Under the pieces are notes generated by a model that was given only the letters and a program-made list of their open reading frames with translations, ran no database searches and was not told where the DNA came from. The translations under genes were made by a program, and so were the position numbers. From a virus: 64,000 nt of DNA. The stretch lies in IMG/VR virus record IMGVR_UViG_3300013131_000024, positions 45,858-109,857 of that record, one strand, 5' to 3'. Below, in pieces: positions 14,653 through 38,926 of this stretch (positions are counted from its first letter, which is position 1; each line of letters opens with the position of its first letter).

Positions 14653-15294
14653 ATGAAAGATTATTACATCTGCTCCGCAAAATATCTTATTCTAGATATA
14701 TCATATCCATATGATGAAATGTTAGACGAAGCTAGAAGACTTAGCCATCGTTTCGTACCTCACAGATCAGCTTTATCTAAAGGTTGGGAATCTTTAACAC
14801 TGCATGGCCTAGGTGAAGATAAAACCGGAAGTTTTGAAGATTATGGATACAAGAACGGAGGAGATGCAGCTAAAGATATGTATTGGACTAAGGCAGCAGA
14901 TGAATCTCCGATAACGAAAAATTTTTTATTGAATAATTTTCCAAGTAAAAGATTCGGTAGAATTCGTCTAATGAAACTTAAGGCAGGTGGGTTTATCGGA
15001 CTTCACTCTGACAGTAGTAGACCTGTTATAGAAAATATAAATTTAGTACTAAACAATCCTCAACATTGTTTATGGATATGGGGGGATGGCACCGAAGTGT
15101 TTATGGATCCTGGCAAAGCCTACGCTATGAATGTTCATTATCAACATAGTGTTTACAACAATAGCTATGAAGATAGATATCACATGATTGTAACAAGACA
15201 CGATTCAACTGATAAATGGAAAGAGATAGTACTGAAAGCATCTAAAGAAACAGGAGAATTAGGCTATTTTGAAAAAATTGATTATCTACCTTAA
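14653..15294 (+). CDS. Asp/Asn beta-hydroxylase-like 2OG-Fe(II) oxygenase
   Basis: RIRLMKL...HSD...HSVYN...RYHMIV. Confidence 0.8.
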   Translation: MKDYYICSAKYLILDISYPYDEMLDEARRLSHRFVPHRSALSKGWESLTLHGLGEDKTGSFEDYGYKNGGDAAKDMYWTKAADESPITKNFLLNNFPSKRFGRIRLMKLKAGGFIGLHSDSSRPVIENINLVLNNPQHCLWIWGDGTEVFMDPGKAYAMNVHYQHSVYNNSYEDRYHMIVTRHDSTDKWKEIVLKASKETGELGYFEKIDYLP

Positions 15295-16692
15295 TATTAT
15301 TGGCGATGTCCAGTCTTTGCTATGCCATTTTGGTTTATTAAGAATGTTGATATCTGTTAAATTAAATTTACAGACTCGATCTTTATAAACTTGCGTAGAT
15401 TTATCGCAAAATCCATCTGCAGCTCTAGCAGAGAATGAAAGAAAAATTTCCGGATTTTTTTCTTGTAATTTATAAATTAATCTGTTCTCGGCTGCTATTC
15501 TATACTTAAGACTTGAAGTATAAGAGAGTGGTGTATAATTAAATACATCACTAACATTATAAAAAGTATTTGCAGTATTATCTACCCAATCAAGATTATA
15601 TGTGCCTAAATAATTTATTAAAATAAAACCATACTGAAGATTTTTAATTCTGTTCCAAGTCATGTCCCAATCGTAGAATTTTGATTTAAATTTTTCCCAT
15701 AATATATTAGATTGTATATAATATTCTTCAGGTATATGTATAGGACCCGATGGAAAATTTTTGTTGATAAAACTTTTATAAAATTCTCCGTAATTTTCTC
15801 CACTCCATTGGCTTATCATTAAGCTCATAAATTGTAGACATTGTGGGTTCACATCGGTAATTACGACTTTGGTTTTATTTGTTGTACCTAGAATATTTAA
15901 ATTATTAATCCAATTAAAACCTGTGCCTGTAGTGATATATTGCTCAATAGGACCTTGACAATTTATATTATCTAATAGACTATCTGAATTGTGCGAAGGA
16001 ACAAAATTAGATCCGAAAAATTGATAATAATATAAGTCAGCAACTTCTTTTAAAAAAACATGATCGTGTTCATAATAAAGATATTTTTTATAGTTCCTTA
16101 TATCGCCTAAATCTATTATTTTTTTTTCCTTTAACAATAATTTAGATATAAGATTCCACCCGTGCTTTTTACCCACATATGTTTTTTTATTTTTTCCTGT
16201 TTTAATCCAAAGAGGAACATAATCGTCGTGTACATTTTCTTCACTTCTTATTGGCTCTATCTGATCATGATATTCATCTTGTTCATAGCCCATCTCTGGC
16301 ATATCGATATCGGAATAGTCATATAAATTTAAAATATAGAACTGATGATGTAATTCGTAATAATATTCTTTTCTATCTAAAATGTGTCCTGCTAAACTAA
16401 AATCTGTAGAACAAAGTTTTTCAACAGACTCAAATAGTTTATCGTTCATTTTTAAACTTGTACCAGTCGAAATAAAAACAGCATACTTGTATTCTTCATA
16501 TACTGCCATTTTAGCTAATAGATCTTCAGATTCTCCTATGAGAATATCAAACCTTTCATGACATTTAAATATAAATTGATCTGTAAGATTAATTGATATC
16601 TCTTTAGCCCAGTTAGTTTGACAATTATTAGTATTATCAATAATGCAAAATACTATGGGTTTTTTCTTGCTAACACTAAATTTTATTGCCAT
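15286..16692 (-). CDS. hypothetical protein
   Basis: 468 aa ORF; no confident motif. Confidence 0.8.
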   Translation of the reverse strand: MAIKFSVSKKKPIVFCIIDNTNNCQTNWAKEISINLTDQFIFKCHERFDILIGESEDLLAKMAVYEEYKYAVFISTGTSLKMNDKLFESVEKLCSTDFSLAGHILDRKEYYYELHHQFYILNLYDYSDIDMPEMGYEQDEYHDQIEPIRSEENVHDDYVPLWIKTGKNKKTYVGKKHGWNLISKLLLKEKKIIDLGDIRNYKKYLYYEHDHVFLKEVADLYYYQFFGSNFVPSHNSDSLLDNINCQGPIEQYITTGTGFNWINNLNILGTTNKTKVVITDVNPQCLQFMSLMISQWSGENYGEFYKSFINKNFPSGPIHIPEEYYIQSNILWEKFKSKFYDWDMTWNRIKNLQYGFILINYLGTYNLDWVDNTANTFYNVSDVFNYTPLSYTSSLKYRIAAENRLIYKLQEKNPEIFLSFSARAADGFCDKSTQVYKDRVCKFNLTDINILNKPKWHSKDWTSPIILR

Positions 16693-17249
16693 TTTGGAAA
16701 CCTACTAAGTTGTCGTAAAAATTTTTCTGCATCTAATTGCCATACAGTTTGTAATGTTTCTCTATAAAATACTTGTCCTATATTTTTTAGGACACCTTGT
16801 TTTTCTAGAGCAGGACCAAATATATTGTTAACTCGACGCTGTGTTCCTACATCACTTTCGTTAGATGTTATGTAAAGCTTAGACGTTGGTGGAGCCCATT
16901 CAATACATTTGGGTATTAGAAATTGAGAAGTAGGATTTTGATATTCGGTTATAACTCTAATAGTTCTTAAGGCTCGTCCATACGAACCCTCTATTTCATC
17001 AGTTAATACACACGTTCTGGCTGCTATTCTATAACTTCCTTCTCCCATAACATCTTCGAAACTATGAGCAGCTACACTTCCGATTGGTTTAGATTTAAAA
17101 TACAATATCCAGACCTGTTTTTCTTTTTCATTATTAAAGCAATCAACTAATTTTTTCTGGCTACAATTATTCAAAAAACCTTTAGCTTTAGCTCTTTCAT
17201 AGAAATAAGATAAATCTAGATCTTCAGACCAAGGAATTACGTAGAACAT
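16683..17249 (-). CDS. GNAT-like acyltransferase (tentative)
   Basis: VWILYF..PIGSVAAH...RIAARTC pattern. Confidence 0.5.
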   Translation of the reverse strand: MFYVIPWSEDLDLSYFYERAKAKGFLNNCSQKKLVDCFNNEKEKQVWILYFKSKPIGSVAAHSFEDVMGEGSYRIAARTCVLTDEIEGSYGRALRTIRVITEYQNPTSQFLIPKCIEWAPPTSKLYITSNESDVGTQRRVNNIFGPALEKQGVLKNIGQVFYRETLQTVWQLDAEKFLRQLSRFPKWQ

Positions 17250-17923
17250 AAAATCTTATCGATAAATTCAGACGAATAGTTATTCCTAAAACTATTCCAA
17301 CAAAGTTTTTCAAGTATTTTAAAACTTTGAGGTTCCTCCCATTTTATATTTAAGATGTCAAGATGTTTTTTCATTTCATTTTGTCTTGTAGAATATATAT
17401 GACTTTCAACGTCTTTTATACTGATGTTAGGTTCATCTTCGTGATACGTGAAAAAATAATTTATACTTTTTAGTTTTCCTTGGACTATAAAATAGCTACT
17501 TGGATGCATACTGAATTTGTATAGTTTTAAAAATTTATGAGCTTTAATTATGTCAATCATCTGCTCTTGCCAATTTGGTAAAACGATATCATAATTTTCA
17601 GTAGCGCATCCTGCCTGCTCCCAAAAATCAACACCGTCTATTTGTAAATATATTTTTCTTTCAGTATAATCTATATCCAAAATAAAAGGAACATGCATAG
17701 GAAATGAACTGTGCATTATTTTTAGGAATTTAACTTCTCTTTCCCACTTTTCCTCCATCTTATCTGGATCAATAATCTCATTCATTCCTTTATGATAATT
17801 ATTGTCGTTATAATACCATTGGACAAATGTTTTTTTGTCTTTGCTTATTAAGCTAGTGTAAATTAAATTATTTCGACAATTTCCCTTACCCGGAACATTG
17901 TTGTAATAGTATTCGTATTTCAT
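17237..17923 (-). CDS. protein-kinase-like fold protein (tentative)
   Basis: WEREVKFL...VPFILDID...IYL...MHPSSYFI...LKSINYF; paralog of 26454-27146. Confidence 0.55.
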   Translation of the reverse strand: MKYEYYYNNVPGKGNCRNNLIYTSLISKDKKTFVQWYYNDNNYHKGMNEIIDPDKMEEKWEREVKFLKIMHSSFPMHVPFILDIDYTERKIYLQIDGVDFWEQAGCATENYDIVLPNWQEQMIDIIKAHKFLKLYKFSMHPSSYFIVQGKLKSINYFFTYHEDEPNISIKDVESHIYSTRQNEMKKHLDILNIKWEEPQSFKILEKLCWNSFRNNYSSEFIDKILCST

Positions 17924-17968
17924 AGATAGCATATTAATTTATCAATAAATATCTCGACCAAAATAAAA

Positions 17969-19447
17969 ATGTTAAAATGTATATTGTTCAATGTAGCCAG
18001 CGGAACTAATTTCGCAGGAAATGGTAGATCCGTTGGGGTTTACAGAATCTCTCACCATCTTCGAGAAGAAGGTTGGGATGTAGAAGTTATAGATTTTGCT
18101 AACGAATGGAGTTTAGAAGATCTTAAATTACTTGCTAAATCAAGGATGCATGGCGGACTAAAATTTTTTGGATTCAGTCATATGTATTCAATATGGACTG
18201 AAACCTTAGAGAAATTTTGTCAATGGATTAAAAAAGAGTATAGTGACATAGTTCTAATATCTGGCTCTAGTGTATCACCTCAATTTACGTCTATACATTT
18301 AGATTTTTATATTCAAGGATTCGGAGAAAACGCTATAACAGCTTTACTATCATGGTTGTTTGGCAACGGACCTAAACCAATTTTTTCTATATTCAAAGCA
18401 AACGGAAAACCATTAATTGCTGCCAACGACAATTATCCTTCATATCCAAGGAGAAACTTAAATGTAATTTACGAAGATAGAGATTTTATCGAATCAGAAG
18501 AGTGGTTAGGCATAGAATTTTCTAGAGGATGTAAATTTAGTTGTGATTTTTGTAATTTTCCAGTATTAGGCGTAAAAGGTGATTATACCAGAGATGCCGA
18601 AAATTTTGAAATACAGATAAAAGATGCTTATGATAGATTTGGTGTTACTAACTATTTGGTATCAGACGAAACATTTAATGATCGTACAGAAAAAATTACT
18701 AAATTTGCAGATATAATAGATAAATTAGATTTTAAACCTTGGTTTAGCGGATTTATACGTCCTGATCTCTTAATTAACAGACCGCAGGACAGAGAAGAAC
18801 TGCTACGCATGAATTTTTTAGGTCACCATTATGGTATAGAAAGTTTTAATTACAAAGCAGTTAAATCTATTGGAAAAGGTATGAATCCTGAAAAGGTTAA
18901 ACAGGGTCTTATAGATGTTAGAAAATATTTTGAAAATAATGGAATTAAAAAATACAGAGCTTTATTAACTTTTATCATAGGTCTACCTCATGAAACAAAA
19001 GATGACATTGAACGAACCACTAGATGGTTGATAGAAAATTGGCAAGGACAGTCATGGACTCCCTTCGTTCTGGAGATCCCCGTTGGGGAACTTAATAGAA
19101 AAAGTAAGATGAGCATGAACTATGAGAAATATGGCTATAGAATTTTTCAAGGAGAGCACAAACATCTAGAGTATAAACAGGCAAGAGTATCTAAAGATTT
19201 GTTAATTTGGGAGCATGATCATATGAATTATTTCGATGCCTATGATTTATTTTACAAAATGATAGAATCAAGAAATGATTTAAATAATAATTTTACTTTA
19301 GCTCCTTGGGATCTAGCTATGATAGGTCTTCCAGGAAACGTCTATGATCGACTCATGTTACACAATTCATGTTTACAGGACAAAATTATAGAAGAAAATA
19401 GAATAAAATTTATACAAAGATACATAAGGAAAAAATTAGAATGTTAA
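17969..19447 (+). CDS. B12-binding-domain radical SAM enzyme
   Basis: EFSRGCKFSCDFC, DETFN, GIES, FIIGLPHET. Confidence 0.9.
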   Translation: MLKCILFNVASGTNFAGNGRSVGVYRISHHLREEGWDVEVIDFANEWSLEDLKLLAKSRMHGGLKFFGFSHMYSIWTETLEKFCQWIKKEYSDIVLISGSSVSPQFTSIHLDFYIQGFGENAITALLSWLFGNGPKPIFSIFKANGKPLIAANDNYPSYPRRNLNVIYEDRDFIESEEWLGIEFSRGCKFSCDFCNFPVLGVKGDYTRDAENFEIQIKDAYDRFGVTNYLVSDETFNDRTEKITKFADIIDKLDFKPWFSGFIRPDLLINRPQDREELLRMNFLGHHYGIESFNYKAVKSIGKGMNPEKVKQGLIDVRKYFENNGIKKYRALLTFIIGLPHETKDDIERTTRWLIENWQGQSWTPFVLEIPVGELNRKSKMSMNYEKYGYRIFQGEHKHLEYKQARVSKDLLIWEHDHMNYFDAYDLFYKMIESRNDLNNNFTLAPWDLAMIGLPGNVYDRLMLHNSCLQDKIIEENRIKFIQRYIRKKLEC

Positions 19448-20910
19448 AATGTATTTTGTTTAACGTTGACAACGGTCCCTTAACTAGAAGACCAATAGGA
19501 GCACATAGAATAGCTCATTTTTTAAGAGAAAACAATTGGGATGCTGAAGTAATAGATTTTTTCAAATTTTGGAGTTTTGATCAACTACAACAATTAGCTA
19601 AACAAAAATTTACTCCAGATGTTAAATGGATCGGAATTTCTTATCTTTTTTTGTCATCTCCTATCGAATCTGTTGATAATTTTTTCTTGTGGGTAAAAAA
19701 GGAATATCCACATATAAAAATCATAGTAGGAAGCCCGATACAGTATAATCAAAAATCTGTGTACGTTGACTATAATATATCTGGGTTCGGAGAAAACGCT
19801 CTGTTAGAACTATTAAAATATCTTTTCAGCAATGGAGCGTCACCGAAATTTTCGTTGGCTACCCATGCCGGAAAACAGATACTAGCTAATGAAATGTACC
19901 CTTCTTATCCTATGAAGAGCCTCAATATAATCTATGAAGATAGAGACTTCATCCAGCCAGAAGAGTGGCTAGGCATTGAATTTGCTAGAGGTTGTAAATT
20001 TAGTTGTGCTTTCTGTAATTTTCCAGTTATAGGTGTTAAAGGAGATTACTCTCGAGATGCGGAAGATTTCGAAGTACAGATCAAGGATGCCTATGATAGA
20101 TTTGGTGTAGAGAACTACTGGGTTTCAGATGAAACGTTTAATGATCGCACGGAGAAAATCACCAAGTTCGCTGATGTTGTTGAAACACTTTCATTTACTC
20201 CATATTTTACCGGATTTATTAGACCTGACCTGTTAATCATTAGACCACAAGATAGAGAAGAACTTCTGCGAATGAATTTTTTAGGTCACTTTTACGGCGT
20301 TGAAACTTTTAATCAAGAAACTGGAAAAATTATAGGAAAAGGTATGGATCCTATTAAAATGAAAGAAGGATTGATAGCTATACGTAAATATTATGAACAA
20401 TATGAAAATAGAAGATATCGGGGCAGTATAAGTTTAATTGCAGGGCTACCTTACGAATCGATTGACAGTATTTTACAAACCAAAGATTGGTTGATAGAAA
20501 ATTGGCAAGGACAAAATTTTACCATGTATCCATTAGAGATTGGAGTTGATGAATTTGATAATCCATCAAAAATAAGTAAAAATTGGAAAAAATATGGTTA
20601 TGTAGATGCATCTAACGATCCTGATATAGGACACCATTTCGCACACATAGGAAATATGCAAATGAATAAAATTTTTATTTGGAAAAATGATTTCACTAAT
20701 CTTAAAGAAGCCAGCGACATAGCGTATCTATATTGGAAAGAAAAATACAATACTGGAAACGATTTTAGACTTAGCAACTTTGCATTATTACATTTAGGAT
20801 TACCTAAAAACTTAGATGAAAAATTTTCTGTAAAAGATACCGAAGAGATAGAAATGTACTCGGCAAATAAAATTATACAAGATTATATAGAGAAAAAATT
20901 AAACAATTAG
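19441..20910 (+). CDS. B12-binding-domain radical SAM enzyme (tandem paralog)
   Basis: EFARGCKFSCAFC; long stretches identical to upstream gene. Confidence 0.9.
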   Translation: MLKCILFNVDNGPLTRRPIGAHRIAHFLRENNWDAEVIDFFKFWSFDQLQQLAKQKFTPDVKWIGISYLFLSSPIESVDNFFLWVKKEYPHIKIIVGSPIQYNQKSVYVDYNISGFGENALLELLKYLFSNGASPKFSLATHAGKQILANEMYPSYPMKSLNIIYEDRDFIQPEEWLGIEFARGCKFSCAFCNFPVIGVKGDYSRDAEDFEVQIKDAYDRFGVENYWVSDETFNDRTEKITKFADVVETLSFTPYFTGFIRPDLLIIRPQDREELLRMNFLGHFYGVETFNQETGKIIGKGMDPIKMKEGLIAIRKYYEQYENRRYRGSISLIAGLPYESIDSILQTKDWLIENWQGQNFTMYPLEIGVDEFDNPSKISKNWKKYGYVDASNDPDIGHHFAHIGNMQMNKIFIWKNDFTNLKEASDIAYLYWKEKYNTGNDFRLSNFALLHLGLPKNLDEKFSVKDTEEIEMYSANKIIQDYIEKKLNN

Positions 20911-20920: not shown

Positions 20921-21988
20921 ATGAAAAAATTGTCAGATACTCTTTCTGTTTGTGAATTTTGTTATAGACATGTGCCAGCCATACGATTTGAAAGAGATGG
21001 AGGAATCTGGTTGTGGAAAAAATGTAAATGGCATGGAGAATCAGAACATTTAGTCGAGCCTGATGCAAGTTTTTATTTAAATTATACCTACATAAGAAAA
21101 CAATTAGAAAGTTACATGATTGATATAACCAATAAATGTAATCTCACTTGTCCAAACTGTCATCAAGAACCGAATAATAATTCAAAAGATTTACCTATAA
21201 ATTTTTTTATAGATATCATATCATCATGGCCAGATAACGGTTGGCCAGTAGCACTTTGTGGGGCAGAACCGACTATTAGAAAAGATTTACCTGAATTTGT
21301 AGAAGCCATTAATTCTATGCCAAGAAAGAAACGTGATATTATTATCCTCACCAACGCTGTGCGACTGGCTGATGAAAATTATACGCAGCAATTTATTGCC
21401 TACAACAATATCTACTGGACTATTGGGTTAAACCATCCTGAATATCAAGGGCATAAGGTTAGAGAAAAACAAATTAAAGGAATTGAAAATTTAGTAAAAT
21501 ATAAACAAAAAATTAAGAATATCAGTTACACTTTAGAAATACTAGGACAAATGGAGTATTGTCTTGAAGAGTTACAAGAATTTTCAAAAAAATATTGTAA
21601 GGCCTTTAGAGTAAGGACAGGTGTTGATATTGGCAGATATCCAGGAGGTCCAAAAGTGTATATGTCAGATTTAGTCAAAGAAATGAATAGAGTGGCAGAA
21701 AAAAATAAATGGCCAATTGAAAAAATTAATGACCAAGGTAATAGAGCTCATTACGCTGTGTTAATTAATGATGTGCCAGTAAAAATTATTCAATGGCCAG
21801 ATGCACAAACATTAGATTTAAGAGAAATACAAACGGAAGCTTTTGGAGATTTTGTACCTAACAAACCAGCATCTCCGCTGATCCATCAAATTATTTTACG
21901 AGATGCACACATTAACAAAGGTCTTCCTCTATATGATACCATTCCACAGGAATATTTAGATAATTATGGCAATCATAGGAATCAATAA
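20921..21988 (+). CDS. radical SAM enzyme with N-terminal CxxC...CxxHG metal module
   Basis: SVCEFC...KKCKWHG; ITNKCNLTCPNC; GAEPT. Confidence 0.85.
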   Translation: MKKLSDTLSVCEFCYRHVPAIRFERDGGIWLWKKCKWHGESEHLVEPDASFYLNYTYIRKQLESYMIDITNKCNLTCPNCHQEPNNNSKDLPINFFIDIISSWPDNGWPVALCGAEPTIRKDLPEFVEAINSMPRKKRDIIILTNAVRLADENYTQQFIAYNNIYWTIGLNHPEYQGHKVREKQIKGIENLVKYKQKIKNISYTLEILGQMEYCLEELQEFSKKYCKAFRVRTGVDIGRYPGGPKVYMSDLVKEMNRVAEKNKWPIEKINDQGNRAHYAVLINDVPVKIIQWPDAQTLDLREIQTEAFGDFVPNKPASPLIHQIILRDAHINKGLPLYDTIPQEYLDNYGNHRNQ

Positions 21989-22775
21989 TTTACCTTATAT
22001 AGATATGGAACCATACTTAGATATGGATATCTTTGAAAAATTACAGCCTGAAATCTACACAGGATTTTCGTTGGCTAGAGAATATGCCAAAGAAGGAACT
22101 TGGATGCAGCCTGGATTTTCTATGAAAGATATGAGCTATATTATAAATTGGAAACCAATATATAAAGCAATGGAAGAGTTTCAATCATTGCCGGACGACA
22201 ACCCAATTAAAAAGGAAGGAATAAAGTTAATGCCATCCGATTTCAAAGATTTTCGTCAAAGAAATATTTTTACAAGATATTTAAAAATGGCTATGGGAGC
22301 ATACGATCCTTACATTTATTATTTTTTATGGGAAGAAGGCGATTGGAATAACAGAGAAAAAGAACGTAAGATGACCGACGAAGCAAAATATTTTCCTTCT
22401 GTTGTAGAATGGGTATTGAATCTTCAAAAAACACAGATATTTGAACATATTGGTAGAGTAATATTTTTCCACTGTGAGGCAGACGGCATTCCATTTGAAC
22501 ATAGAGATCTAGATGCCCAAAACGGCATAGACATAATTAAACCTCATCGAAACGAATTTATACATATTAGACCTGATACAAAAAAATCATTTTATATTTG
22601 GGATCCAAAAAAGAAAAATAAAATTTATCTTAATACAAGAGCAGCATGGTGGAATGACGTGGACTGGCATGGAGGAGAGAGGATTATGGAACAGAGTTAT
22701 AGCTTACGTGTAGATGGCAGGTTTACCGATGAGTTTCGGAAACGTTTAGGTATAAATCACTTGGATAATTATTAA
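21966..22775 (+). CDS. 2OG-Fe(II) oxygenase-like protein
   Basis: EHRD...DWHGG...SLRVDG. Confidence 0.75.
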   Translation: MAIIGINNLPYIDMEPYLDMDIFEKLQPEIYTGFSLAREYAKEGTWMQPGFSMKDMSYIINWKPIYKAMEEFQSLPDDNPIKKEGIKLMPSDFKDFRQRNIFTRYLKMAMGAYDPYIYYFLWEEGDWNNREKERKMTDEAKYFPSVVEWVLNLQKTQIFEHIGRVIFFHCEADGIPFEHRDLDAQNGIDIIKPHRNEFIHIRPDTKKSFYIWDPKKKNKIYLNTRAAWWNDVDWHGGERIMEQSYSLRVDGRFTDEFRKRLGINHLDNY

Positions 22776-23548: not shown

Positions 23549-24039
23549 ATAATTATAAAGATTGGATAGATTCGTCTTTAACTAATTACCTTTTGAACAA
23601 CGAAGGAATCTTAAGGCCAAATATAGGAACTAATCCCGATGTCGAAGAATTTAAAAATGCTGAAAAAGCAGGATACGATCTTAGAAAAACATGGTGGCAC
23701 ATTTATGAACCAAATATTTTGCCATTTACAATTAAATTACCTATAGAATCGAATAGATCGTCGATATGGTGGTTCATTAAACTACTACCGGGAGGAATGA
23801 TGCCCATGCATCGAGATCCTCATGTAAGATTTGATAATGTAAAAAATCCTACAAGGTACTGGATGCCTCTACAAGATTACGAACCGGGCCATATTTTTGT
23901 CTATAATAATGTCGTTCTTACCGATTACAAAGCTGGAGATCTTTGGAGCTACGGGGACAGCGATGAGCTTCATGGCGCTTGCAACATCAGTTATATTCCA
24001 AGGTTAACATTTCTTTTTACGATATATGACATCCCATGA
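23536..24039 (+). CDS. 2OG-Fe(II) oxygenase-like protein
   Basis: PMHRD...LHGACN...RLTF. Confidence 0.75.
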   Translation: MHFIDNYKDWIDSSLTNYLLNNEGILRPNIGTNPDVEEFKNAEKAGYDLRKTWWHIYEPNILPFTIKLPIESNRSSIWWFIKLLPGGMMPMHRDPHVRFDNVKNPTRYWMPLQDYEPGHIFVYNNVVLTDYKAGDLWSYGDSDELHGACNISYIPRLTFLFTIYDIP

Positions 24040-27811: not shown

Positions 27812-27854
27812 AGTGAAAAATATTTATGTACTATTATTATCGTGTAAATATATT

Positions 27855-30676: not shown

Positions 30677-31505
30677 TCTTGATACAAATCGATACAAGAG
30701 ATTTTTTTCTTTTGGTTGTAGTTTTACTAATTATTTCTGGCCTACGTGGGCTGATATAATTGGTCGACAAATAGATCATTACGAAAATTGGGGGAAGGGT
30801 GGAGCCGGGAATCAGTTCATCTTTAACTCACTAATTGAATGTCATAGACGAAATAAGTTTACCAAAGAAGATCTTGTTGTAGTGATGTGGACCAGTTGTA
30901 GTAGAGAAGACCGATATGTTAACAACGAGTGGTTAGTGGCCGCTTCAGAAAACAGAGAAGAAATATATGGTAAAGAATGGATGAAAAAGTTTGGTCAACA
31001 AAGCAAAGGTTTAATGATAAGAGATTTTGCTGTTATAGATGCGTCTCAAAAACTTTTAGATTCGTTCGGATGCGATTGGTTAAACTTATGTAGTTTGCCT
31101 CTGATTAGATTTGATTTTGAAAAAGCAGAACAAGATATTAAAAAAAATTATATAACTCTGGATGAAATAGAAAATAGATGGTGTAAACAACAACTGTCGT
31201 TATCAGAAGGAGGATCATATAGAGATCATTATCTAACAGATATAGACGTAGTAGATCTGTACAAAGATATCTTTACAAAAATAAAAAGACCTTTATACGA
31301 AATAGTACGTAAAAACAAGCCCAGACCTAATTTTGGAGATCAACATCCTAGCCCCCTAGAGGCCTTATCTTACATAAATGAAGTTGTTGATAATAATTTA
31401 GACGTCCTTGAATATTGTAATCATTGGAACGATATAGTTTTCAATATTAAAAATAAATCATCAATACCTGTTAAGTTTTTTAGACCGGCACCTATAAGAT
31501 TTTAA
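30663..31505 (+). CDS. SGNH/GDSL-like hydrolase or acyltransferase
   Basis: FGCSFT, NWGKGGAGN, DQHP. Confidence 0.65.
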   Translation: MLLTNLDTNRYKRFFSFGCSFTNYFWPTWADIIGRQIDHYENWGKGGAGNQFIFNSLIECHRRNKFTKEDLVVVMWTSCSREDRYVNNEWLVAASENREEIYGKEWMKKFGQQSKGLMIRDFAVIDASQKLLDSFGCDWLNLCSLPLIRFDFEKAEQDIKKNYITLDEIENRWCKQQLSLSEGGSYRDHYLTDIDVVDLYKDIFTKIKRPLYEIVRKNKPRPNFGDQHPSPLEALSYINEVVDNNLDVLEYCNHWNDIVFNIKNKSSIPVKFFRPAPIRF

Positions 31506-32466
31506 ATTTAGTTGTGTTTATTTCTGGCTGACAAAAACATTTGTTTCTAGTACATGTTGTCGGAATAATTTTAGGATTAAAATTATTCTTAAAATTTTTA
31601 TCGAATATATTAAATTGATAAGGAAGGTCATAAAGATTTTCTCCACACGCTCCTTGGATAGAACCAGATTTATCAATATATAATGTATCTATTCCGATAT
31701 TACATTTCCAACCGTCAAAAGAGTTTAAAGAATTTAATGAAATCCAATTATGCGGAACTTTTTTTGTGCTATTATCATTAAATGTGACTGTACTTTTTTT
31801 ATCTGGAATAGTTTGAGCTTTTAACCACCAGAAGACATTTGGAATTCTTTTTAGTGATTTAGACAAATATTTTTTTTGATCTTCGGTATATCTTATAGAA
31901 TGATGATGCACTTCTTGAGCATCTATAGGCCAACTTTTATTACTGCCTTTCAAAGTCTCAATTAAATGAACGCACTGATTCCATGCTGTTGGATCCATTA
32001 ATACTTTTACAGACAAACTCTTGTTTTTACTGTAAAGTAAATCTCCAACTTTTATTATGTGGGCAGGATCAACAAACTGGTGATGACAGCTTATCATCGT
32101 GTGATCAAAATTCTGACCATTTTCATCCCACCATTTCAATGTCCTACTCCCATTGGTAGAAATGCTTATCAAAGTGTTATAATTTTCTTTAAAGTATGAA
32201 ACAAAATCTGTAAGATTCGGCCAAATAGTTGGTTCTCCACCGATAATATGAAAATAAAAACGTTCTTTATTTTGATGTTGTTTATAATAATTTAATAAAT
32301 GACTTAAATTATCAATTAGAAGATCGTAATCCGGCCAACGATGAGTTCCTTCGTTTGATCCGGGAAAGCAATACCAACATCGATGATTACATACGTTGAA
32401 CAAGAATAATTCAATTCTTAAATAATTATTCGGTAAATTGGATTCTATTTTAATAATTTCTTTCAT
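31492..32466 (-). CDS. radical SAM enzyme
   Basis: CNHRCWYC; GGEPT; C-terminal Cys cluster. Confidence 0.9.
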   Translation of the reverse strand: MKEIIKIESNLPNNYLRIELFLFNVCNHRCWYCFPGSNEGTHRWPDYDLLIDNLSHLLNYYKQHQNKERFYFHIIGGEPTIWPNLTDFVSYFKENYNTLISISTNGSRTLKWWDENGQNFDHTMISCHHQFVDPAHIIKVGDLLYSKNKSLSVKVLMDPTAWNQCVHLIETLKGSNKSWPIDAQEVHHHSIRYTEDQKKYLSKSLKRIPNVFWWLKAQTIPDKKSTVTFNDNSTKKVPHNWISLNSLNSFDGWKCNIGIDTLYIDKSGSIQGACGENLYDLPYQFNIFDKNFKNNFNPKIIPTTCTRNKCFCQPEINTTKFKIL

Positions 32467-33878
32467 AATAAATTGCTTAGTTCCGGAAATGTTATTTTAA
32501 AATCTAATTTACGTTGATTATCTAAAGTCGTTATATATTCTCTAAAATCAGGTAATAAATTTGTATGGTCTTCACTGTCCATCCAATCGAGAATTCCTTC
32601 CCAGCGTTTCCAACCATATGAATTTACTTCCCAGAAGTCTTCATCTTTGGTATAATTATGCCAAAGCCATTCTTTTAATTCGTTGAATAAATTTCGAATT
32701 TCTTCTTTATGTTCTTTTGGCAAAACTTTCAAACTTAGCCAGGTCGGAATCCATACGAGATGTGCGCTGAACAATCCTCCGCTATGTATCTCTCCTACTA
32801 TGTTTTGATTAAGATTAATTTTCTTAAAATTTTGTGAAATCTTCCATTTTATAAAATCAGGTATATGTTTGATATTCAACAATTGAACTGCACATGCGAT
32901 TGTTGTTTCGATGTTTTCTGGAGCATTGTCAAGCAAATGCAAATTTTTTACTACGGTTTCCCAATCGGTCGGATATCGAATATAATGCAATCTATCCCCC
33001 ATACCATCTATGCTGAATCCAAATTTCACTTTTTTAAAATTTTTCCATAGATTTATTGTATTCTCATCTAGAAGTAATCCGTTGCTATTATATCTAAGTT
33101 CGATATCTTTTGCATATCCCTGTTTTATTATTTCTTCCAAGAATCTCCTGTGTTCTTTAATCATTAGAGGTTCACCACCTGCAAAATAAATTTGTTTTAT
33201 GTTAGGAATTTGTTCATAAATTTCTTTCCAAAAATTTAAATTCTCATGCCACAGATTATTAAATTTGTCTTGCTGCCAGCTCAATTGTTTTTTGATTAAA
33301 GAACTATTGAATAAAGGATAAATCTTTTTATGATCCTCTACCCATTTGCTGCTGTCATGCGGACTACACATAACACATTTTAAATTACAGGTATGACCTA
33401 ATCTTAAATCAATATAATGTAATTTATAAGGAACCCTACCGTCTAGGTCTGTCTGGGCAATTAATGATGGAATATCTATGCCTTGCTTATGCCATACGCC
33501 AGTTTCCCAAATACGTTTACTTACAACTCCGTTTTGTTCTTCTTCGAAACATTTTTTACAACTTAAAGGAATTTTTCCTTCTAACATCGTTTGTCTAACA
33601 TTTCGCATGTATTCGCTGTTAAATGATTCCGATGGCGAATCTTTAGAAAAATTTGCAGATTCTCCAGTTTCTGTTTTTACAAGACCTACATTATAATTTC
33701 CATCTTTGGCACCACTGGCATTTGCAACACAACATATTCGCATATCTCCATTCGGTCTAGTAGCCAAATGTATCCATGGAAGAACACAGAAGCTAGGGCT
33801 TCCACTAATGTCTTCTATTTGTTTTTGCCAACTACCTAACTGTGATTCTTGAGATTGCATCCAGAATATTTTATTCAT
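32463..33878 (-). CDS. radical SAM enzyme with N-terminal SPASM/twitch-like domain
   Basis: FCVLPW...ICC; CNLKCVMC; AGGEP. Confidence 0.9.
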   Translation of the reverse strand: MNKIFWMQSQESQLGSWQKQIEDISGSPSFCVLPWIHLATRPNGDMRICCVANASGAKDGNYNVGLVKTETGESANFSKDSPSESFNSEYMRNVRQTMLEGKIPLSCKKCFEEEQNGVVSKRIWETGVWHKQGIDIPSLIAQTDLDGRVPYKLHYIDLRLGHTCNLKCVMCSPHDSSKWVEDHKKIYPLFNSSLIKKQLSWQQDKFNNLWHENLNFWKEIYEQIPNIKQIYFAGGEPLMIKEHRRFLEEIIKQGYAKDIELRYNSNGLLLDENTINLWKNFKKVKFGFSIDGMGDRLHYIRYPTDWETVVKNLHLLDNAPENIETTIACAVQLLNIKHIPDFIKWKISQNFKKINLNQNIVGEIHSGGLFSAHLVWIPTWLSLKVLPKEHKEEIRNLFNELKEWLWHNYTKDEDFWEVNSYGWKRWEGILDWMDSEDHTNLLPDFREYITTLDNQRKLDFKITFPELSNLL

Positions 33879-34962
33879 TGAATTGATCTAATTTTAAAAA
33901 TTGGTCTTTGCTTTTGCTTATTTGATGATTTTTAAAAACTCCACAGGTTCTCGAACATGCCCTGAGCGGACTATTTTCAAAAGAATCTATCCATAGTGTT
34001 TGCCACTGATCGCTGTCGACAATCTCTTCTATAGTTTTATTTTGCAAATTAAAATTCTCTAGTCCTCCAAACTTATCTATAAATTCAAAAAACGTTTGGC
34101 GACTATCTTCTTGAAATGAATGAACTAGCTGATCGGATTTTGTATAAATGTAAGGAACTGCGCCTACAAAACAGCAGGGCCATAAATACCCATTAGCATC
34201 GATGAAAATACTCTTTGTTTTTTCTACATCGCAATTTATTTTTACTTCGCTGAAAATTTTTCTATAATTTTCTACAGTTTTTTTATCAATAAAAGCTAAT
34301 TTATGAACCGTAGGCATTTCTAATTTATGTGAAACTTTTCCTTCTTTGTTATAAACTTCATAATAAGGGGTTCCAATAAATCTACTTGTTTGTTTTTCAA
34401 AGAAACTATCGAATCCGAGAGTTTTTGCTAATTTTTTACATTCTTCTAATTGATGTTCATTGTGCTTAAATGTAATAAAAACCCATCGTGCATTTCCCCC
34501 TGCTTCGATAAATGATTTTGAATTATCGATAATTTTGTTCCAGTCAGTTCCGATTCTGTAAAGGGAATGCGTATCGGCTAGGCCATCTAACGCAAAATGC
34601 ACTAAATGATTAGTCGGTAATGCAAGTGCAAGGTCTTTCCACCATTTTGTTGACCTAGCTCCGCCATTTGTATGGATATCAATTTTTATTTTTGGAGATA
34701 CTTTTTTAATATATTCTGTTATAGGTATAAGATCTTGGTTAAGTATAGGATCTCCAAAATTTCCGCACATAGAAATCTGATGCAATTGAGATAACAAATC
34801 AGGTGAAACTATTTTTTTAAAAAAATCTAAATCAACATCTTTTACCTTCAAAATAGGATTAGGCAACCCTCCATGATGATTTCTCGCACACATAGGACAA
34901 CTTGCCTGACAATTAGAGGATAGCTCAAGATGTAATTCTTTTAAATCTTCGTATCGATACAT
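33871..34962 (-). CDS. radical SAM/SPASM enzyme
   Basis: CQASCPMC; GNFGDP; WPCC...CSRTC. Confidence 0.9.
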   Translation of the reverse strand: MYRYEDLKELHLELSSNCQASCPMCARNHHGGLPNPILKVKDVDLDFFKKIVSPDLLSQLHQISMCGNFGDPILNQDLIPITEYIKKVSPKIKIDIHTNGGARSTKWWKDLALALPTNHLVHFALDGLADTHSLYRIGTDWNKIIDNSKSFIEAGGNARWVFITFKHNEHQLEECKKLAKTLGFDSFFEKQTSRFIGTPYYEVYNKEGKVSHKLEMPTVHKLAFIDKKTVENYRKIFSEVKINCDVEKTKSIFIDANGYLWPCCFVGAVPYIYTKSDQLVHSFQEDSRQTFFEFIDKFGGLENFNLQNKTIEEIVDSDQWQTLWIDSFENSPLRACSRTCGVFKNHQISKSKDQFLKLDQFNE

Positions 34963-35576
34963 TATACTTTACCTATGATCATGAATCTTTTATATAAAGA
35001 TAATTCTAATTCTCTCGACCAAAGAACTTGGATATTAGATTGTTTTATAAATTCTTCTAGAGAACCGGCTGTCCTCACATGTTCTGGTATGTTATAGTTG
35101 TTGCTTTGTAAAACAATTATACTGTTTTGAGGTTGGCCACTGAGCCATAGATCGTATTGATCCTGCGTAATATGTTCGCAACTGGTATTGATAATGATAT
35201 CAGCATCACTTCGCATAATACACATGTCTGCGGTTACTGCTCTAAAACGACCTCCCATTTCTTCTTTCTTATTCATCATAGTTGCTATAGATTCACAGTC
35301 TGGATCTATATCAATGCTACGAATATTACTGATAGGAATATCGCTTTGGAACAACATACTGGCCAACACTCCTACCCATCCGCCGTGTACGTCGACACTT
35401 AATGGAAAGTCTAAAACTTTGTTTATTTCAGTATAGATATAATATTCTAAGTTTTCAATTAACCATTCTTTGCTTTGTATTTGTCCTCGCCAGAATGCAT
35501 CAAGGGTACGCATAGGATCCTTGCTTTCACGAATAGCACACATCCAATAATGTAAATGTTCTGTATCAATTTGCAT
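34962..35576 (-). CDS. SAM-dependent methyltransferase-like protein
   Basis: GGWVG, SIDID, INTSCEH. Confidence 0.7.
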   Translation of the reverse strand: MQIDTEHLHYWMCAIRESKDPMRTLDAFWRGQIQSKEWLIENLEYYIYTEINKVLDFPLSVDVHGGWVGVLASMLFQSDIPISNIRSIDIDPDCESIATMMNKKEEMGGRFRAVTADMCIMRSDADIIINTSCEHITQDQYDLWLSGQPQNSIIVLQSNNYNIPEHVRTAGSLEEFIKQSNIQVLWSRELELSLYKRFMIIGKV

Positions 35577-36570
35577 GAATAGGTATAATCTTTTTACTGT
35601 TGTTAATCTTTCTCTTCGGCATGACAGTTTCAACACTGCAAACACAAGAAGTTTGACTACATATCGCTGGTTTAATAGAGGGATTAAATTTTTTTGTAAA
35701 GTCTATATCATAAAGATTGTATGAGAAGTCATTTCCATATAAAACTTGATTACAACTTCCTTGTATGTTACCTTCTTTTGATACATTGACCCAATGAACA
35801 CCTACACTACATTCCCATCCATAAAAATTATTCAACTTTTTTAGTAGGATTTCGTTGTCCTTAAACTTATGTTTTTTATTATTTAAATCAGTTACCACTA
35901 CAGAACTTCTATAATATTTGTTATTTTTCCAAAAGAAAAACGGATTTACTTTACGTGCTCTATGTTTAGATAAAATTTTCTTTTGTTCTTCTGTATAATC
36001 TACAGTATTGTCGATAATTTCAACATACCTAATAGTCCATCTACGTCTACTACCTTTTAAGTATTCAACCAATTCTAAACACTTGTCCCATTCACGGGGA
36101 TCCATCATTACTGATACACTTACTACAATATTTTTCTCATACAAATGATCACATAGATTTCTAAATTCTTCCTTGTCGACAAATTCATGATGGCAACTCA
36201 TATGCACTCGATCAAAATACTTTGCGTTCTGTTCCCACCAGTCTAATTTCTTAGAACCGTTAGATGTCATAGATATTAAACAATTAAATTCTTCTTTAAG
36301 AAACTTTATAAACTCTGGTAATTTAGGCCAATGCGTAGGTTCACCGCCACAAAAATGAACATCGAATACTTTTTTATCTGTATAAGTTTTATAATAATTT
36401 ATAAAATGAGAAATATTTTGTTTTATTACATCTATATCAGGAAATTTATGAGTACCTACATTTGACCCTGGCCAACAATACCAACATTTGTAATTACAGT
36501 AATTGCCGAGATTTATGTCAATGTTTAATACTTCTTCTCGCCAATTATTCTTTATTTCGATTATATCCAT
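35566..36570 (-). CDS. radical SAM enzyme
   Basis: CNYKCWYC; GGEPT. Confidence 0.9.
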   Translation of the reverse strand: MDIIEIKNNWREEVLNIDINLGNYCNYKCWYCWPGSNVGTHKFPDIDVIKQNISHFINYYKTYTDKKVFDVHFCGGEPTHWPKLPEFIKFLKEEFNCLISMTSNGSKKLDWWEQNAKYFDRVHMSCHHEFVDKEEFRNLCDHLYEKNIVVSVSVMMDPREWDKCLELVEYLKGSRRRWTIRYVEIIDNTVDYTEEQKKILSKHRARKVNPFFFWKNNKYYRSSVVVTDLNNKKHKFKDNEILLKKLNNFYGWECSVGVHWVNVSKEGNIQGSCNQVLYGNDFSYNLYDIDFTKKFNPSIKPAICSQTSCVCSVETVMPKRKINNSKKIIPIHAN

Positions 36571-37267
36571 ATTGTACCATTTTAATATTTAATCTTGTCT
36601 TATCTCCTGGATAGTCGGTAATGATATCAGTTAGAGTATTTGCAAATAACTCATTTCCTTTTAAGGTATAATGATTACCTGACGGTTTTTTAAAATTTAA
36701 AAAATATTTTTCCTGTTCTTCTGCATATGTGTATAAAGGTATACCAATAGTAACTCCTTTATCAAAAGTATAATTAGAATAATCCCCATCAAACCCAAAA
36801 AAATGTACAATCTTTTCTATACTATATTTTTTAACTATATCGTCTAGTTCCTTAAACCATTGATGTACTGCCCAATTATAAAAATCAAATGACATTAGAT
36901 GTTTGTAATATTGAAATGCAGCTTGATGCACTTCATCGGGCATCTTATATTCTTTATCGTTTACATTAATTAACCTAGTTTCGACACTTCGAAAATTAAG
37001 ACCTACATCGTTATCATTCGGAATTCGATATGGTTCTGTATGACATACTATCAGTATTTTGGGTATGCTAATTTCCAATTCTTTTAAAATAATTTTCCTG
37101 TAAGACCACCAAGATCCGCCCGGCATTCCTTTGCCTCTCGGTTGTCTTTTTGAATTAAATGTCTCTCCTGTTAAATTACTAACTAGAATTTGAGGCCAGT
37201 GATATTTCTTGTTTCTGTCTGAACAAAAACTATCTCCGACTATTAATATATCATTCCAATTATACAT
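36545..37267 (-). CDS. SGNH-like protein
   Basis: VGDSF...NHY...GN. Confidence 0.6.
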   Translation of the reverse strand: MYNWNDILIVGDSFCSDRNKKYHWPQILVSNLTGETFNSKRQPRGKGMPGGSWWSYRKIILKELEISIPKILIVCHTEPYRIPNDNDVGLNFRSVETRLINVNDKEYKMPDEVHQAAFQYYKHLMSFDFYNWAVHQWFKELDDIVKKYSIEKIVHFFGFDGDYSNYTFDKGVTIGIPLYTYAEEQEKYFLNFKKPSGNHYTLKGNELFANTLTDIITDYPGDKTRLNIKMVQYGYNRNKE

Positions 37268-37298
37268 GCTTATACTTTACATCCGTCTAAATTTATTT

Positions 37299-37955
37299 CT
37301 AATCGCACTTAGCTCGATCTCTTAAGAAATGTTTTACAACTCCGTAAGGTTTATGATACGGAATATCGTTGCTTATATTTAAAAACTCTAAAATCTGTTT
37401 GGCAAATGCTTGATTGCATTCTATACCCGGATGACATTTATCAAGAGCATAAGGATAAAATTCACTTAATCTAATAATATAAACAGGAATATGTCTAACT
37501 GTGTCATTTGACAATGTTAATATTGTGTTTATAGAATCTTTAACAATTAAATTATATGTTTGTATATTTTTAGATTTTAAAAACACGTTAGCATGGTTAA
37601 CAAATAATTTTGACATTAGATTAGCATCAAAAACATCATAAAAATCTTTGTAGTACTCGCAATCAGATCTTACATTAATATCAATGACGCGATCTTGTTT
37701 TATAATTGCACTTCGATCTGGGTACGACCATAAAATAAAAACAGTATCTGTTTCAATAAAATTAAAATTAAGTATAGTATTCCAGATTCGTTTATTACTA
37801 GATCCCGGACTAGCCATGTTTATACAATGTCTATTCATATATTTTGCAAGAATAGTAGGCCATCCTAATTGACTAGGAGTAGGACACGGGTTAACACAAT
37901 CAGGAAGACCTTGTCCATATGTCAACGAGCATCCAAAAGTTATCAATCTTTCCAT
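37299..37955 (-). CDS. SGNH-like protein
   Basis: FGCSLT, NMASPGSSN, DKCHPG. Confidence 0.65.
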   Translation of the reverse strand: MERLITFGCSLTYGQGLPDCVNPCPTPSQLGWPTILAKYMNRHCINMASPGSSNKRIWNTILNFNFIETDTVFILWSYPDRSAIIKQDRVIDINVRSDCEYYKDFYDVFDANLMSKLFVNHANVFLKSKNIQTYNLIVKDSINTILTLSNDTVRHIPVYIIRLSEFYPYALDKCHPGIECNQAFAKQILEFLNISNDIPYHKPYGVVKHFLRDRAKCD

Positions 37956-38926
37956 TTTGGTATCTTACTGTCTGCTGAACTAACACATGTTGGGGTGATA
38001 CAAATTTTTGATTCTTTAAAAAGTTCAAAATTAGTTATAGTACCTAATGATATATCTTGACAACTATACGATCTTTTAACTTCACTACCTCTTATTATGA
38101 TACTTTGATATCCTGAATTGCAATTCCATCCGGTGAATTTGTTAAATCCGTAAGCATTAAATCGTTCAGCTTGATCAATTAAATATTCTTTTTCGTTTTT
38201 ATCGTAAAGAGATATCTGATACACATCTTCACCGTTCGTTTGTTGAGGAAATCCGGTTTTCATCAGTCTGGTCATCTCATCGGTATAACCATCTACTACA
38301 CAACTTGCAGTAGGATCACTCTGCGGTTTTAAAGTCACATTGATTCCTCTTCGATATAATCGTTCGCAACGTTCGTATAATTCGTAAAATTTTTCCGGTA
38401 CCATTACTTGATTAACTGTTAAGAAAACATTTTCATAAATTAACTGTAAACATTTATCTCCAAATTCTTGTTCTTTAGCATGTTCTGCATGATAACTAGC
38501 AGTTATACTACGGCGTTGTAAATCTTTAGTAATACTACACCAAGATCCCCACCATTTCGACCCTGGACTAAGGTTCGTAGTCATATGAACACTTTGGTAT
38601 GGGGTTGTTGGACCATCATCTAAATATTGTATTAGATGTAAGAGATCTTTATAAGCAGTAGGTTCTCCGCCGCTAAAACTCCAATGAAACTCCATGAAAT
38701 CATTTTGCCTAGCCTGACGTTTAATTTCATCTATGGTGCGTTTATAAACTGCAAGTTCTTGATGGTCAAGTTCATCGCTTCGAGCATAAGGCCAACAATA
38801 AGAACAATTATAATTACAGAATCTTCCCAATATCCAGCTTACAGAAAACAAAGGACGAGACAACATAGTTCGTTGTCCAAATTTAACAATATGTTGAAAA
38901 GGAATTTTTTGAAAATCGTGCGTCAT
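37943..38926 (-). CDS. radical SAM enzyme
   Basis: CNYNCSYC; SGGEPT. Confidence 0.9.
   Translation of the reverse strand: MTHDFQKIPFQHIVKFGQRTMLSRPLFSVSWILGRFCNYNCSYCWPYARSDELDHQELAVYKRTIDEIKRQARQNDFMEFHWSFSGGEPTAYKDLLHLIQYLDDGPTTPYQSVHMTTNLSPGSKWWGSWCSITKDLQRRSITASYHAEHAKEQEFGDKCLQLIYENVFLTVNQVMVPEKFYELYERCERLYRRGINVTLKPQSDPTASCVVDGYTDEMTRLMKTGFPQQTNGEDVYQISLYDKNEKEYLIDQAERFNAYGFNKFTGWNCNSGYQSIIIRGSEVKRSYSCQDISLGTITNFELFKESKICITPTCVSSADSKIPKWKD

Follow-up and report, generated by a model that had tools for sequence, protein, structure and literature searches.

In a 64,000-nucleotide stretch of viral DNA from lake water (bases 45858-109857 of the 109,857-base IMG/VR virus contig IMGVR_UViG_3300013131_000024; hereafter the window), positions 14653-38926 hold an island of 28 closely packed or overlapping open reading frames (ORFs), g01 to g28. 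They encode 10 radical S-adenosylmethionine (SAM) proteins, 8 cupin/2-oxoglutarate (2OG)-like proteins, 2 QueC-like PP-loop proteins, 2 to 3 SGNH-like proteins, 2 kinase-like proteins, 1 class-I methyltransferase and three unknowns (Table 1). Judged by gene content and order, this island is one version of a modular, often reshuffled cassette family in aquatic jumbo phages of about 350 kb, whose core consists of three radical SAM proteins (g22, g23 and g28) and the methyltransferase g24. We tentatively read it as a cytoplasmic pathway that would tailor a sugar nucleotide, or an intermediate that carries a sugar, for use in a surface structure, a reading to which we give a little less than an even chance. 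We infer the substrate class, each individual reaction and the final acceptor; as the earlier note on this DNA had held, the substrate itself cannot be read from the sequence.

The evidence for a cassette family begins with the recurrence of the core. At E<=1e-10, g22 has more than 4000 matches among metagenomic proteins, and a g22 search of IMG/VR recovered 80 distinct viral loci at 44-79% identity. While g22 is present in all 80 by selection, g24 occurs in 77 of them, the family comprising g19, g21, g25 and g28 in 78, and g23 in 68. Around these genes, accessory modules recur in varying order and orientation, namely g16-g17-g18-g19, g03-g04-g07-g08-g10-g12-g13-g15, the g05/g06 pair and g27. 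Within the island itself, blastp and hhalign comparisons of family alignments built from the related loci resolve eight sets of paralogs (g05/g06, g08/g09, g10/g12/g13, g04/g15, g14/g17, g18/g22, g20/g27 and g19/g21/g25/g28). CheckV estimates the completeness of our contig at 31%, which indicates that the source is a jumbo phage of roughly 350 kb, and the completeness of the long contigs among the related loci (32-50% at 115-191 kb, with one complete at 357.6 kb) identifies the other carriers as jumbo phages of about the same size. Megablast found nothing similar to the island among 50,697 phage records, and the left flank, which holds a block of 29 tRNA genes at 3459-10913, matched tRNA genes only. 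Among cultured phages, only the Ralstonia jumbo phage RsoM2USA has a radical SAM gene with an N-terminal twitch domain (N-twitch) beside a g24-like gene, in the stretch of genes 347-349 of MG752970, all of them annotated as hypothetical.

A further feature of these islands is positional. Our related viral records comprise G001, which is complete at 357 kb, the near-identical G003, and G002, G004 and G005. The best homolog of the fibre-like gene that precedes g01 borders the island in four further lineages, where it is immediately adjacent (G001/G003) or stands at the island edge (G004, G005 and the locus L034). The other flank, which carries a thymidylate-synthase gene, lacks such a linkage in G001, and the fibre linkage is thus the sole stable positional feature. 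The earlier description of a cluster-scale tailoring set beside a fibre gene is borne out by this arrangement, by the intact motifs of the enzymes and by their conservation.

Some of the related islands contain genes of quite different kinds. A homolog of flavin-dependent tryptophan halogenases (E 5e-93) lies beside a class-III aminotransferase at L062:3500-8400 and in matching stretches of L063, L064, L066 and L067. A membrane fatty-acid-desaturase-family gene is found within the phage islands at L003:7043-7819 and in 13 other viral loci, and at 30-35% identity also in three loci from the genome scan described below (L105, L108 and L109).

The core is shared with cellular organisms. In a scan that took a single genome for each prokaryote species, and from which 29 cellular loci were analysed in detail, the closest cellular g22 homologs (45-50% identity) were found almost exclusively in Bdellovibrionota, on contigs of up to 3 Mb and beside dnaG/rpoD. 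The remaining core genes accompany them at 33-37% (g23), 46-50% (g28) and 30-39% identity (g24), and the cellular loci often add g01-, g17-, g05- and g19-like genes; the GC content of the genes equals that of the locus. In a maximum-likelihood tree, phage and cellular g22 proteins form sister clades, with support from the SH-like approximate likelihood ratio test (SH-aLRT) of 98 for the orthogroup, 99 for the cellular and 81 for the phage clade, which argues for an old split rather than a recent transfer. Tandem arrays of 5-8 N-twitch radical SAM paralogs are present in some Bdellovibrionota genomes and in one contig binned as Gammaproteobacteria (L113:8689-17039, L131:2229-11350 and L124:6702-15216); in terms of gene content, they are a large lineage-specific expansion. 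These arrays are tightly packed and leave no space for precursor genes, and the one in L113 lies amid what read, from their sequence only, as housekeeping genes (respiratory-complex-like and ATP-synthase-like ORFs).

What points to sugars is the set of genes embedded in these homologous clusters. In the Bacteriovoracaceae locus L102, two GT2 glycosyltransferases are located between the core and further N-twitch radical SAM genes; the cluster also holds a QueC/Asn-synthase-like PP-loop gene and an AspH-like gene, and beside it stands a flavin amine-oxidoreductase with faint similarity to GLF (UDP-galactopyranose mutase). Another Bdellovibrionales lineage (L088) has a NodU/CmcH O-carbamoyltransferase between g22 and g23, and in L124 a short-chain dehydrogenase/reductase (SDR) epimerase/dehydratase lies beside the core. 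On the phage side, UDP-Glc/GDP-Man-dehydrogenase-family genes occur in 15 of the 80 loci, with the L056 copy between g28 and g24, and SDR epimerase/4,6-dehydratases in eight, with the G005 copy adjoining the fibre gene; altogether, 20 of the 80 have one or both. Nucleotide-sugar dehydrogenases and SDR epimerase/dehydratases are the classical entry enzymes to unusual sugars. Of the four targets that the earlier note had offered (virion proteins, glycans, host surface and nucleic acids), glycans are therefore favoured, and nucleic acids are disfavoured for reasons given below. As to the host surface, none of the 28 island proteins has a transmembrane segment, which most likely places their chemistry in the cytoplasm. 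Direct action on membrane lipids or on the outer surface was accordingly judged unlikely, although desaturase genes do occur in other islands.

The enzyme families themselves were assigned with varying precision. Pfam and NCBIfam return exactly the ten radical SAM proteins proposed before (g05, g06, g07, g18, g19, g21, g22, g23, g25 and g28), two of them of B12 type (g05 and g06) and three with SPASM or twitch domains (g18, g22 and g23). All ten exceed the Pfam cut-off for PF04055 and keep one CX3CX2C motif. The B12-binding domain of g05 and g06 scores 24-25 bits, below the Pfam cut-off of 32.1, and their best NCBIfam models are class-B radical SAM methylases, matched in part (54-59 bits against cut-offs of at least 360), such that the architecture agrees while no equivalog is matched. 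Both g18 and g22 match NF033640 (N_Twi_rSAM) from end to end, with an N-terminal auxiliary-cluster Cys domain followed by the radical SAM core; this family was named by architecture alone, and we know of no member with a known substrate or reaction, so that membership is uninformative on function. The small paralogs g19, g21, g25 and g28 show weak viperin-, MoaA- and QueE-like NCBIfam matches at their N termini. They do not match the viperin type, as they score 36-47 bits against the NF038283 cut-off of 180, in the N-terminal cluster region only. PDB profile searches with g22, g23 and g28 retrieved only distant, generic radical SAM proteins (Tes, SkfB and 5v1q).

Pfam, hhalign, and AlphaFold2 (AF2) models compared by Foldseek also agree with the eight 2OG- or AspH-like proteins listed earlier, seven of which (g01, g08, g09, g10, g12, g13 and g16) have the family-invariant HxD...H triad that is absent from g11. 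For g08, modelled at a predicted local distance difference test (pLDDT) score of 84.5, the top Foldseek matches are all 2OG-Fe(II) oxygenases, among them proline hydroxylases, PHD2, ALKBH5 and AspH. The g24 model (pLDDT 87.7) matches DnrK and NTMT1 at 2e-9 and has at least 500 matches at E<=1e-3, of which all listed are methyltransferases; its sequence features a conserved HGGWxG motif, and strand 2 is followed by an acidic residue. The nearest ESM Atlas clusters of g24 are viral, sequence homologs are present in Bdellovibrionota, and none of its longer homologs (356-838 aa) has a Pfam domain, hence no informative fusion was found. The single methyltransferase of the earlier inventory is thereby supported by its fold, the two QueC-like proteins by motifs and the two kinase-like ones by PDB profiles, with some refinement. 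By their motifs, g14 and g17 belong to the PP-loop ATPases and have a zinc motif like that of QueC, but they are not QueC themselves, since TIGR00364 gives 25 bits against a cut-off of 150 and covers the C-terminal part only. For g04 and g15, the profile matches to TTK (4e-7) and Bud32 cover positions 62-164 and a protein-kinase-like fold is likely, but catalysis is uncertain, with the consensus K-x-S-L-Y-P-x-C at the position of the expected HRD loop. Of three proposed SGNH-like proteins, g20 and g27 stand, with blocks I, III and V kept in both and in their families, an assignment based on motifs only as Pfam gave no match; the third, g26, is degenerate and lacks block V. The GNAT-like protein of the earlier list, presumably g03, could not be confirmed, with no match in Pfam, PHROGs or the PDB profile search. 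PDB profile searches were also without match for g24 and g08, PHROGs gave no usable match for ten unknown island proteins, and NCBIfam gave nothing for g01, g02, g04, g08, g15, g16, g24 and g27. As a side observation, g01 and g02 are neighbours across many viral and Bdellovibrionota loci, and g02 resembles a cluster of viral proteins in the ESM Atlas that are 688 aa in length and of which 97% have Asp_Arg_Hydrox; g01 and g02 are probably fused in other viruses.

If the sugar reading is correct, the core (g22, g23, g28 and g24) and the interchangeable accessory modules would operate as one soluble cytoplasmic pathway. Radical C-H chemistry could provide epimerisation, dehydrogenation, deoxygenation and C-methylation, to which the other enzymes might add O2-dependent hydroxylation, O/N-methylation, ATP-dependent carboxylate activation (for example uronic-acid amidation by the QueC-like proteins), phosphorylation and reactions on O-acyl groups. 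What results would be a sugar with many modifications, placed on a surface structure that could be the neighbouring fibre or virion or a host envelope glycan recognised by phages. Sugar and aminoglycoside enzymes with such activities include BtrN (a twitch dehydrogenase), GenK and GenD1 (B12 C-methylases), AprD4, DesII, KanJ (2OG), APH-type kinases and the carbamoyltransferase TobZ. The island shares with aminoglycoside and unusual-sugar pathways the twitch and B12 radical SAM enzymes, the 2OG oxygenase and the kinase fold, and the cellular clusters share the carbamoyltransferase. However, the similarity between island proteins and these enzymes is at the level of the superfamily only, a resemblance of toolkit rather than demonstrated homology.

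Several observations weigh against a sugar substrate. No nucleotide-sugar enzyme or glycosyltransferase lies inside our island, and the GT2, UDP-Glc-dehydrogenase and epimerase families are absent from the 110-kb contig, which has only one distant GT4 glycosyltransferase, outside the window (G000:C1:16599-17609, equivalent to L166:7600-8610). Across the five related phage records searched there is no GT2, the complete G001 has neither a GT2 nor a GT4 match, and the carbamoyltransferase homologs of G001 and G002 are far from the island. All island proteins stay below the cut-offs of the characterised sugar-modifying families, and neither g14 nor g17 gives an NCBIfam match to the N-acetyl-sugar amidotransferase model. 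Peptide or protein modification is just as typical a setting for SPASM/twitch radical SAM proteins, for AspH- and prolyl-hydroxylase-like oxygenases and for kinase-like proteins, and some accessory genes of the relatives (the tryptophan halogenase, the class-III aminotransferase and the fatty-acid desaturase) point elsewhere. The link to sugars is therefore one of guilt by association in relatives; GT2 and SDR genes are common, and the link concerns only about a quarter of the phage loci. With sugar genes inside the islands of relatives and none inside this one, the island is proposed to work like a glycan island, as an unproven member. The neighbours of the distant GT4 gene are a ribonucleotide-reductase small chain, a PAAR protein, a peroxiredoxin, a cell-wall hydrolase and an IMPDH/GMP-reductase-family protein.

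It is tempting to go one step further and to picture a new, heavily modified sugar class, built by radical SAM enzymes, attached to the phage's own tail fibre as a strain-specific chemical "serotype" and rapidly diversified by the shuffling of modules, of which both the contig comparisons and a partial module of 96.6% identity from another habitat give signs. The core in common with predatory Bdellovibrionota would then perform sugar chemistry without a characterised precedent. We consider this more specific proposal unlikely, though worth stating.

Known virus systems resemble the island in part. Giant-virus fibril glycosylation clusters and the O-antigen genes of seroconverting phages use glycosyltransferases, acetyltransferases and classical nucleotide-sugar enzymes; like the proposed pathway, such machineries make or alter sugars of the virion or the host surface and are clade-specific and variable, but to our knowledge none of them is dominated by radical SAM enzymes. 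Closer in layout is the hypervariable host recognition cluster of pelagimyophages and cyanomyophages, which lies beside tail-fibre genes and includes "radical SAM gene cassettes" (PMC7029224). It shares with our island the presence of tail-unrelated enzymes next to fibre genes and of radical SAM cassettes that differ between close relatives, whereas its carriers are T4-like phages of about 150-200 kb, its content is dominated by glycosyltransferases, and the cassettes are mentioned there without analysis, so that we liken the two by description (PMC7029224). Tandem arrays of diverse 2OG/JmjC-type oxygenases have been described in cyanophage Syn9, with tryptophan halogenases in its relatives, and secondary metabolism was proposed as their role (Iyer et al. 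2010, PMC2938197). These arrays likewise combine many tandem oxygenases with the lack of a scaffold gene, but they were not described with radical SAM enzymes, while the core of our island is radical SAM plus methyltransferase and the oxygenases are accessory. Literature searches yielded passing mentions of such cassettes only and no characterised pathway, and no core member has a known reaction.

Alternatively, the enzymes could act directly on residues of the adjacent fibre or of another virion protein, in the manner of a proteusin pathway; we regard this as unlikely. In the pathway to the proteusin polytheonamide, two B12 radical SAM C-methylases, a further radical SAM enzyme, a SAM-dependent N-methyltransferase and a 2OG hydroxylase work on one substrate, much the toolkit of the island, and a precursor peptide with a leader is required. 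As the earlier note had remarked, there is no obvious precursor: we found no conserved non-shadow ORF of 50-110 aa inside the cassettes of the 80 viral loci, and hence, at an ORF size of at least 50 codons, no precursor gene beside maturases of the kind that marks a cluster for ribosomally synthesised and post-translationally modified peptides. In g23 the radical SAM domain begins at residue 14, without an N-terminal extension that could hold a recognition element. Nonetheless, most SPASM/twitch radical SAM proteins are peptide maturases, which are also numerous among the best partial NCBIfam matches; the g08 fold is like that of prolyl hydroxylases, g01 and g16 match AspH, and among the proteins structurally close to g24 is NTMT1, which methylates protein N termini. 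The fibre-gene linkage, kept in five lineages, would also be explained, yet it is equally expected of any hypervariable host-recognition region. Direct protein modification further leaves the embedded nucleotide-sugar, GT2 and carbamoyltransferase genes without explanation, and no protein partner is evident for the arrays of up to eight N-twitch radical SAM genes amid the housekeeping genes of Bdellovibrionota.

Less probable still, in our view, is a diffusible small molecule (similar to an aminoglycoside, a nucleoside, a halogenated metabolite or a nucleotide analogue) directed against competitors, host defence or metabolism. No scaffold synthase is seen in the island, in agreement with the earlier note, and a primary metabolite as the starting point would make one unnecessary. 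The scale and the enzyme mix are those of a biosynthetic gene cluster, the NodU/CmcH carbamoyltransferases of the cellular relatives are typical of antibiotic pathways, and the weak N-terminal similarity of the small radical SAM paralogs to viperin, MoaA and QueE would fit, although all matches to characterised enzymes remain far below the family cut-offs. The pairing of tryptophan halogenase and class-III aminotransferase in related islands is in line with this idea as well, and the same association was noted for the cyanophage dioxygenase arrays (PMC2938197). On the other hand, the island has no transporter, resistance or regulator gene, its link to the fibre gene would go unexplained, and the variation of gene content among close relatives is more in keeping with a variable surface trait than with a single defined metabolite. 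Hypermodification of nucleic acids, either phage DNA bases of the 7-deazaguanine or hypermodified-thymidine type or the 29 phage tRNAs, is very unlikely: the two QueC-like PP-loop proteins, the weak QueE, TYW1 and MoaA matches of the small radical SAM proteins, the faint Bud32 match of the kinase-like proteins and the location between the tRNA array, a tRNA-like RNA and the thymidylate-synthase gene would suit it, but TGT/DpdA is absent from our contig and from G001, G002, G003, G004 and G005, including the 100%-complete 357-kb G001, QueC similarity is limited to the PP-loop and the C-terminal Cys motif (25 bits against 150), in G001 the island and the thymidylate-synthase flank are unlinked, and the sugar genes inside homologous islands speak for a different target.

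The island is a real and functional part of the phage genome as far as assembly and selection can tell. The stretch is contiguous across independent assemblies: in the runs X1 and X2, single contigs span at least 21000-39300 with 0 differences, and contigs of a third run tile the same region; these runs may be the source samples themselves. Synteny with relatives extends to both flanks, and on the right, thymidylate-synthase side it is seen in close ones. A misassembled cellular fragment, which the earlier note had named as a possible refutation, does not match this picture, and neither does gene decay: the genes are intact, and the ratio of nonsynonymous to synonymous substitution rates (dN/dS) against the nearest homologs is 0.05-0.41, at saturated synonymous sites, such that the island genes are kept under purifying selection. 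A fourth run, an aquaculture metagenome from another study and habitat, contains only the g18-g22 module (28912-33390) at about 96.6% identity (154 differences in 4479 bases) together with part of the right flank (38900-40200) at 95% or more, the other island modules being absent at that threshold. This pattern fits a mosaic exchange of modules between phages.

As described earlier, the 28 genes span 24 kb in blocks of alternating strand, six in total: g01 (+), g02-g04 (-), g05-g12 (+), g13-g16 (-), g17-g20 (+) and g21-g28 (-). The island is also AT-rich, with a GC content of 0.320 compared to 0.397 and 0.390 in the flanks. Directly past g28 and before the thymidylate-synthase-side genes, a tRNA-Leu-like RNA with a strong promoter occupies 38955-39100. 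The TAAATA hexamer, previously interpreted as a late-type box, is depleted across the window (62 sites against 114 expected), and an exact copy stands 4-17 nt upstream of the first start codon in five of the six strand blocks (g01, g05, g16, g17 and g28; the spacing is 4 nt for g01, with the box at 14643, 9 nt for g16, 4 nt for g17 and 10 nt for g28). The presence of the boxes is thereby upheld, but late timing is not, since the box precedes many other genes in the window, including fibre- and virion-like ones and also non-structural ORFs within the tRNA region; it resembles a promoter element of general use in the phage. A late promoter of T4 type was rejected, because TATAAATA has only 3 sites in the window against 11 expected. 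In several places the box is followed by ATG after 4-5 nt (14643-14655, 27845-27857, 47587-47600, 50567-50580, 7040-7052 on the minus strand, 7415-7428 and 5268-5281). If TAAATA is a -10-type element, this leaves no space for a Shine-Dalgarno leader, and a phage-specific promoter may thus produce leaderless or very-short-leader mRNAs. Some mechanically called ORF starts probably lie too far upstream. By comparison with homologs, g24 starts at ATG 35564 and not at GTG 35645; the likely start of g17 is ATG 27855 (not 27813), just after the TAAATA box; and in g18, whose ORF is TTG-initiated (28474), the match to the family profile starts at residue 22.

Table 1. Genes of the island and the bordering fibre-like gene, with window coordinates
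Gene and assignment	Position	Strand	Evidence
Fibre-like gene	13204-14619	+	Pfam Mtd_N 6e-10; four DDSTxxVD/N repeats; T 12.6%, G 11.8%, S 10.9%
g01, Asp/Asn beta-hydroxylase-like cupin	14653-15294	+	PF05118 3.3e-10, above the cut-off; invariant H118-x-D120...H165/H177
g02, 468 aa, virus-only family (ESM Atlas)	15286-16692	-	no match in Pfam, PHROGs or NCBIfam
g03, conserved, 188 aa, no fold assigned	16683-17249	-	family alignment with 68% mean column identity
g04, small, protein-kinase-like, paralog of g15	17237-17932	-	hhalign g04/g15 99.9%; PDB profiles TTK 4e-7, Bud32
g05, radical SAM with B12-binding domain	17969-19447	+	Pfam; 52% identical to g06
g06, radical SAM with B12-binding domain	19441-20910	+	Pfam; tandem paralog of g05
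g07, radical SAM with N-terminal HMPTM-type zinc ribbon	20921-21988	+	PF23545 6e-12 and PF04055
g08, 2OG-Fe(II) oxygenase fold	21966-22775	+	AF2 and Foldseek; HRD...H, invariant H179, D181, H235
g09, 2OG-Fe(II) oxygenase fold, paralog of g08	22775-23548	+	HRD...H motif
g10 (+), g11 (+), g12 (+), g13 (-), small cupin/AspH-like	23536-25764	mixed	hhalign to g01 and g16
g14, QueC-like PP-loop ATPase	25740-26453	-	Pfam QueC 2.7e-8, C-terminal part only; SGGADS, CGNCWWC
g15, kinase-like, paralog of g04	26454-27146	-	blastp, hhalign, PDB profile
g16, AspH-like cupin	27143-27811	-	Pfam Asp_Arg_Hydrox; H81-x-D83...H125; in 45/80 related loci
g17, QueC-like PP-loop ATPase	27855-28541	+	SGGADS, C-terminal CxxCxxC
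g18, N-twitch radical SAM, paralog of g22	28474-29787	+	NF033640, 340 bits (cut-off 170)
g19, small radical SAM, g19/g21/g25/g28 family	29780-30676	+	Pfam, NCBIfam, CX3CX2C
g20, SGNH-like hydrolase	30663-31505	+	GCS...GxGN...DxHP; hhalign g20/g27 97.6%
g21, small radical SAM	31492-32466	-	43% identical to g25
g22, core N-twitch radical SAM	32463-33878	-	NF033640, 406 bits (cut-off 170); Cys 31, 49, 50, 107, 110 invariant
g23, core radical SAM with C-terminal SPASM	33871-34962	-	Pfam; in 68/80 viral loci and 29/29 cellular loci analysed in detail
g24, core class-I methyltransferase fold	34962-35564	-	AF2 and Foldseek; in 77/80 viral loci
g25, small radical SAM	35566-36570	-	Pfam, blastp, CX3CX2C
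g26, degenerate SGNH-like	36545-37267	-	GDS kept, no block V DxxH; homologs in none of the 80 loci
g27, SGNH hydrolase-like	37299-37955	-	GCS, GxSN, DxxHP
g28, core small radical SAM	37943-38926	-	58-77% identity in 63-73 viral loci; 46-50% in Bdellovibrionota

With ten radical SAM enzymes and eight oxygenases, none of which maps to a characterised reaction, the island is among the densest collections of difficult C-H chemistry so far seen in a virus. With thousands of homologs, its g22-g23-g28-g24 core is a frequent element in lakes and oceans, and jumbo phages have it in common with predatory bacteria. Solving the reaction of one core member would therefore annotate a very large environmental gene set and would probably reveal new enzymology, and RsoM2USA, as a cultured carrier, makes the question experimentally accessible. 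If it is true that the product decorates the fibre or rewrites a host receptor glycan, the cassette would bear on how giant phages recognise their hosts and exclude competitors.

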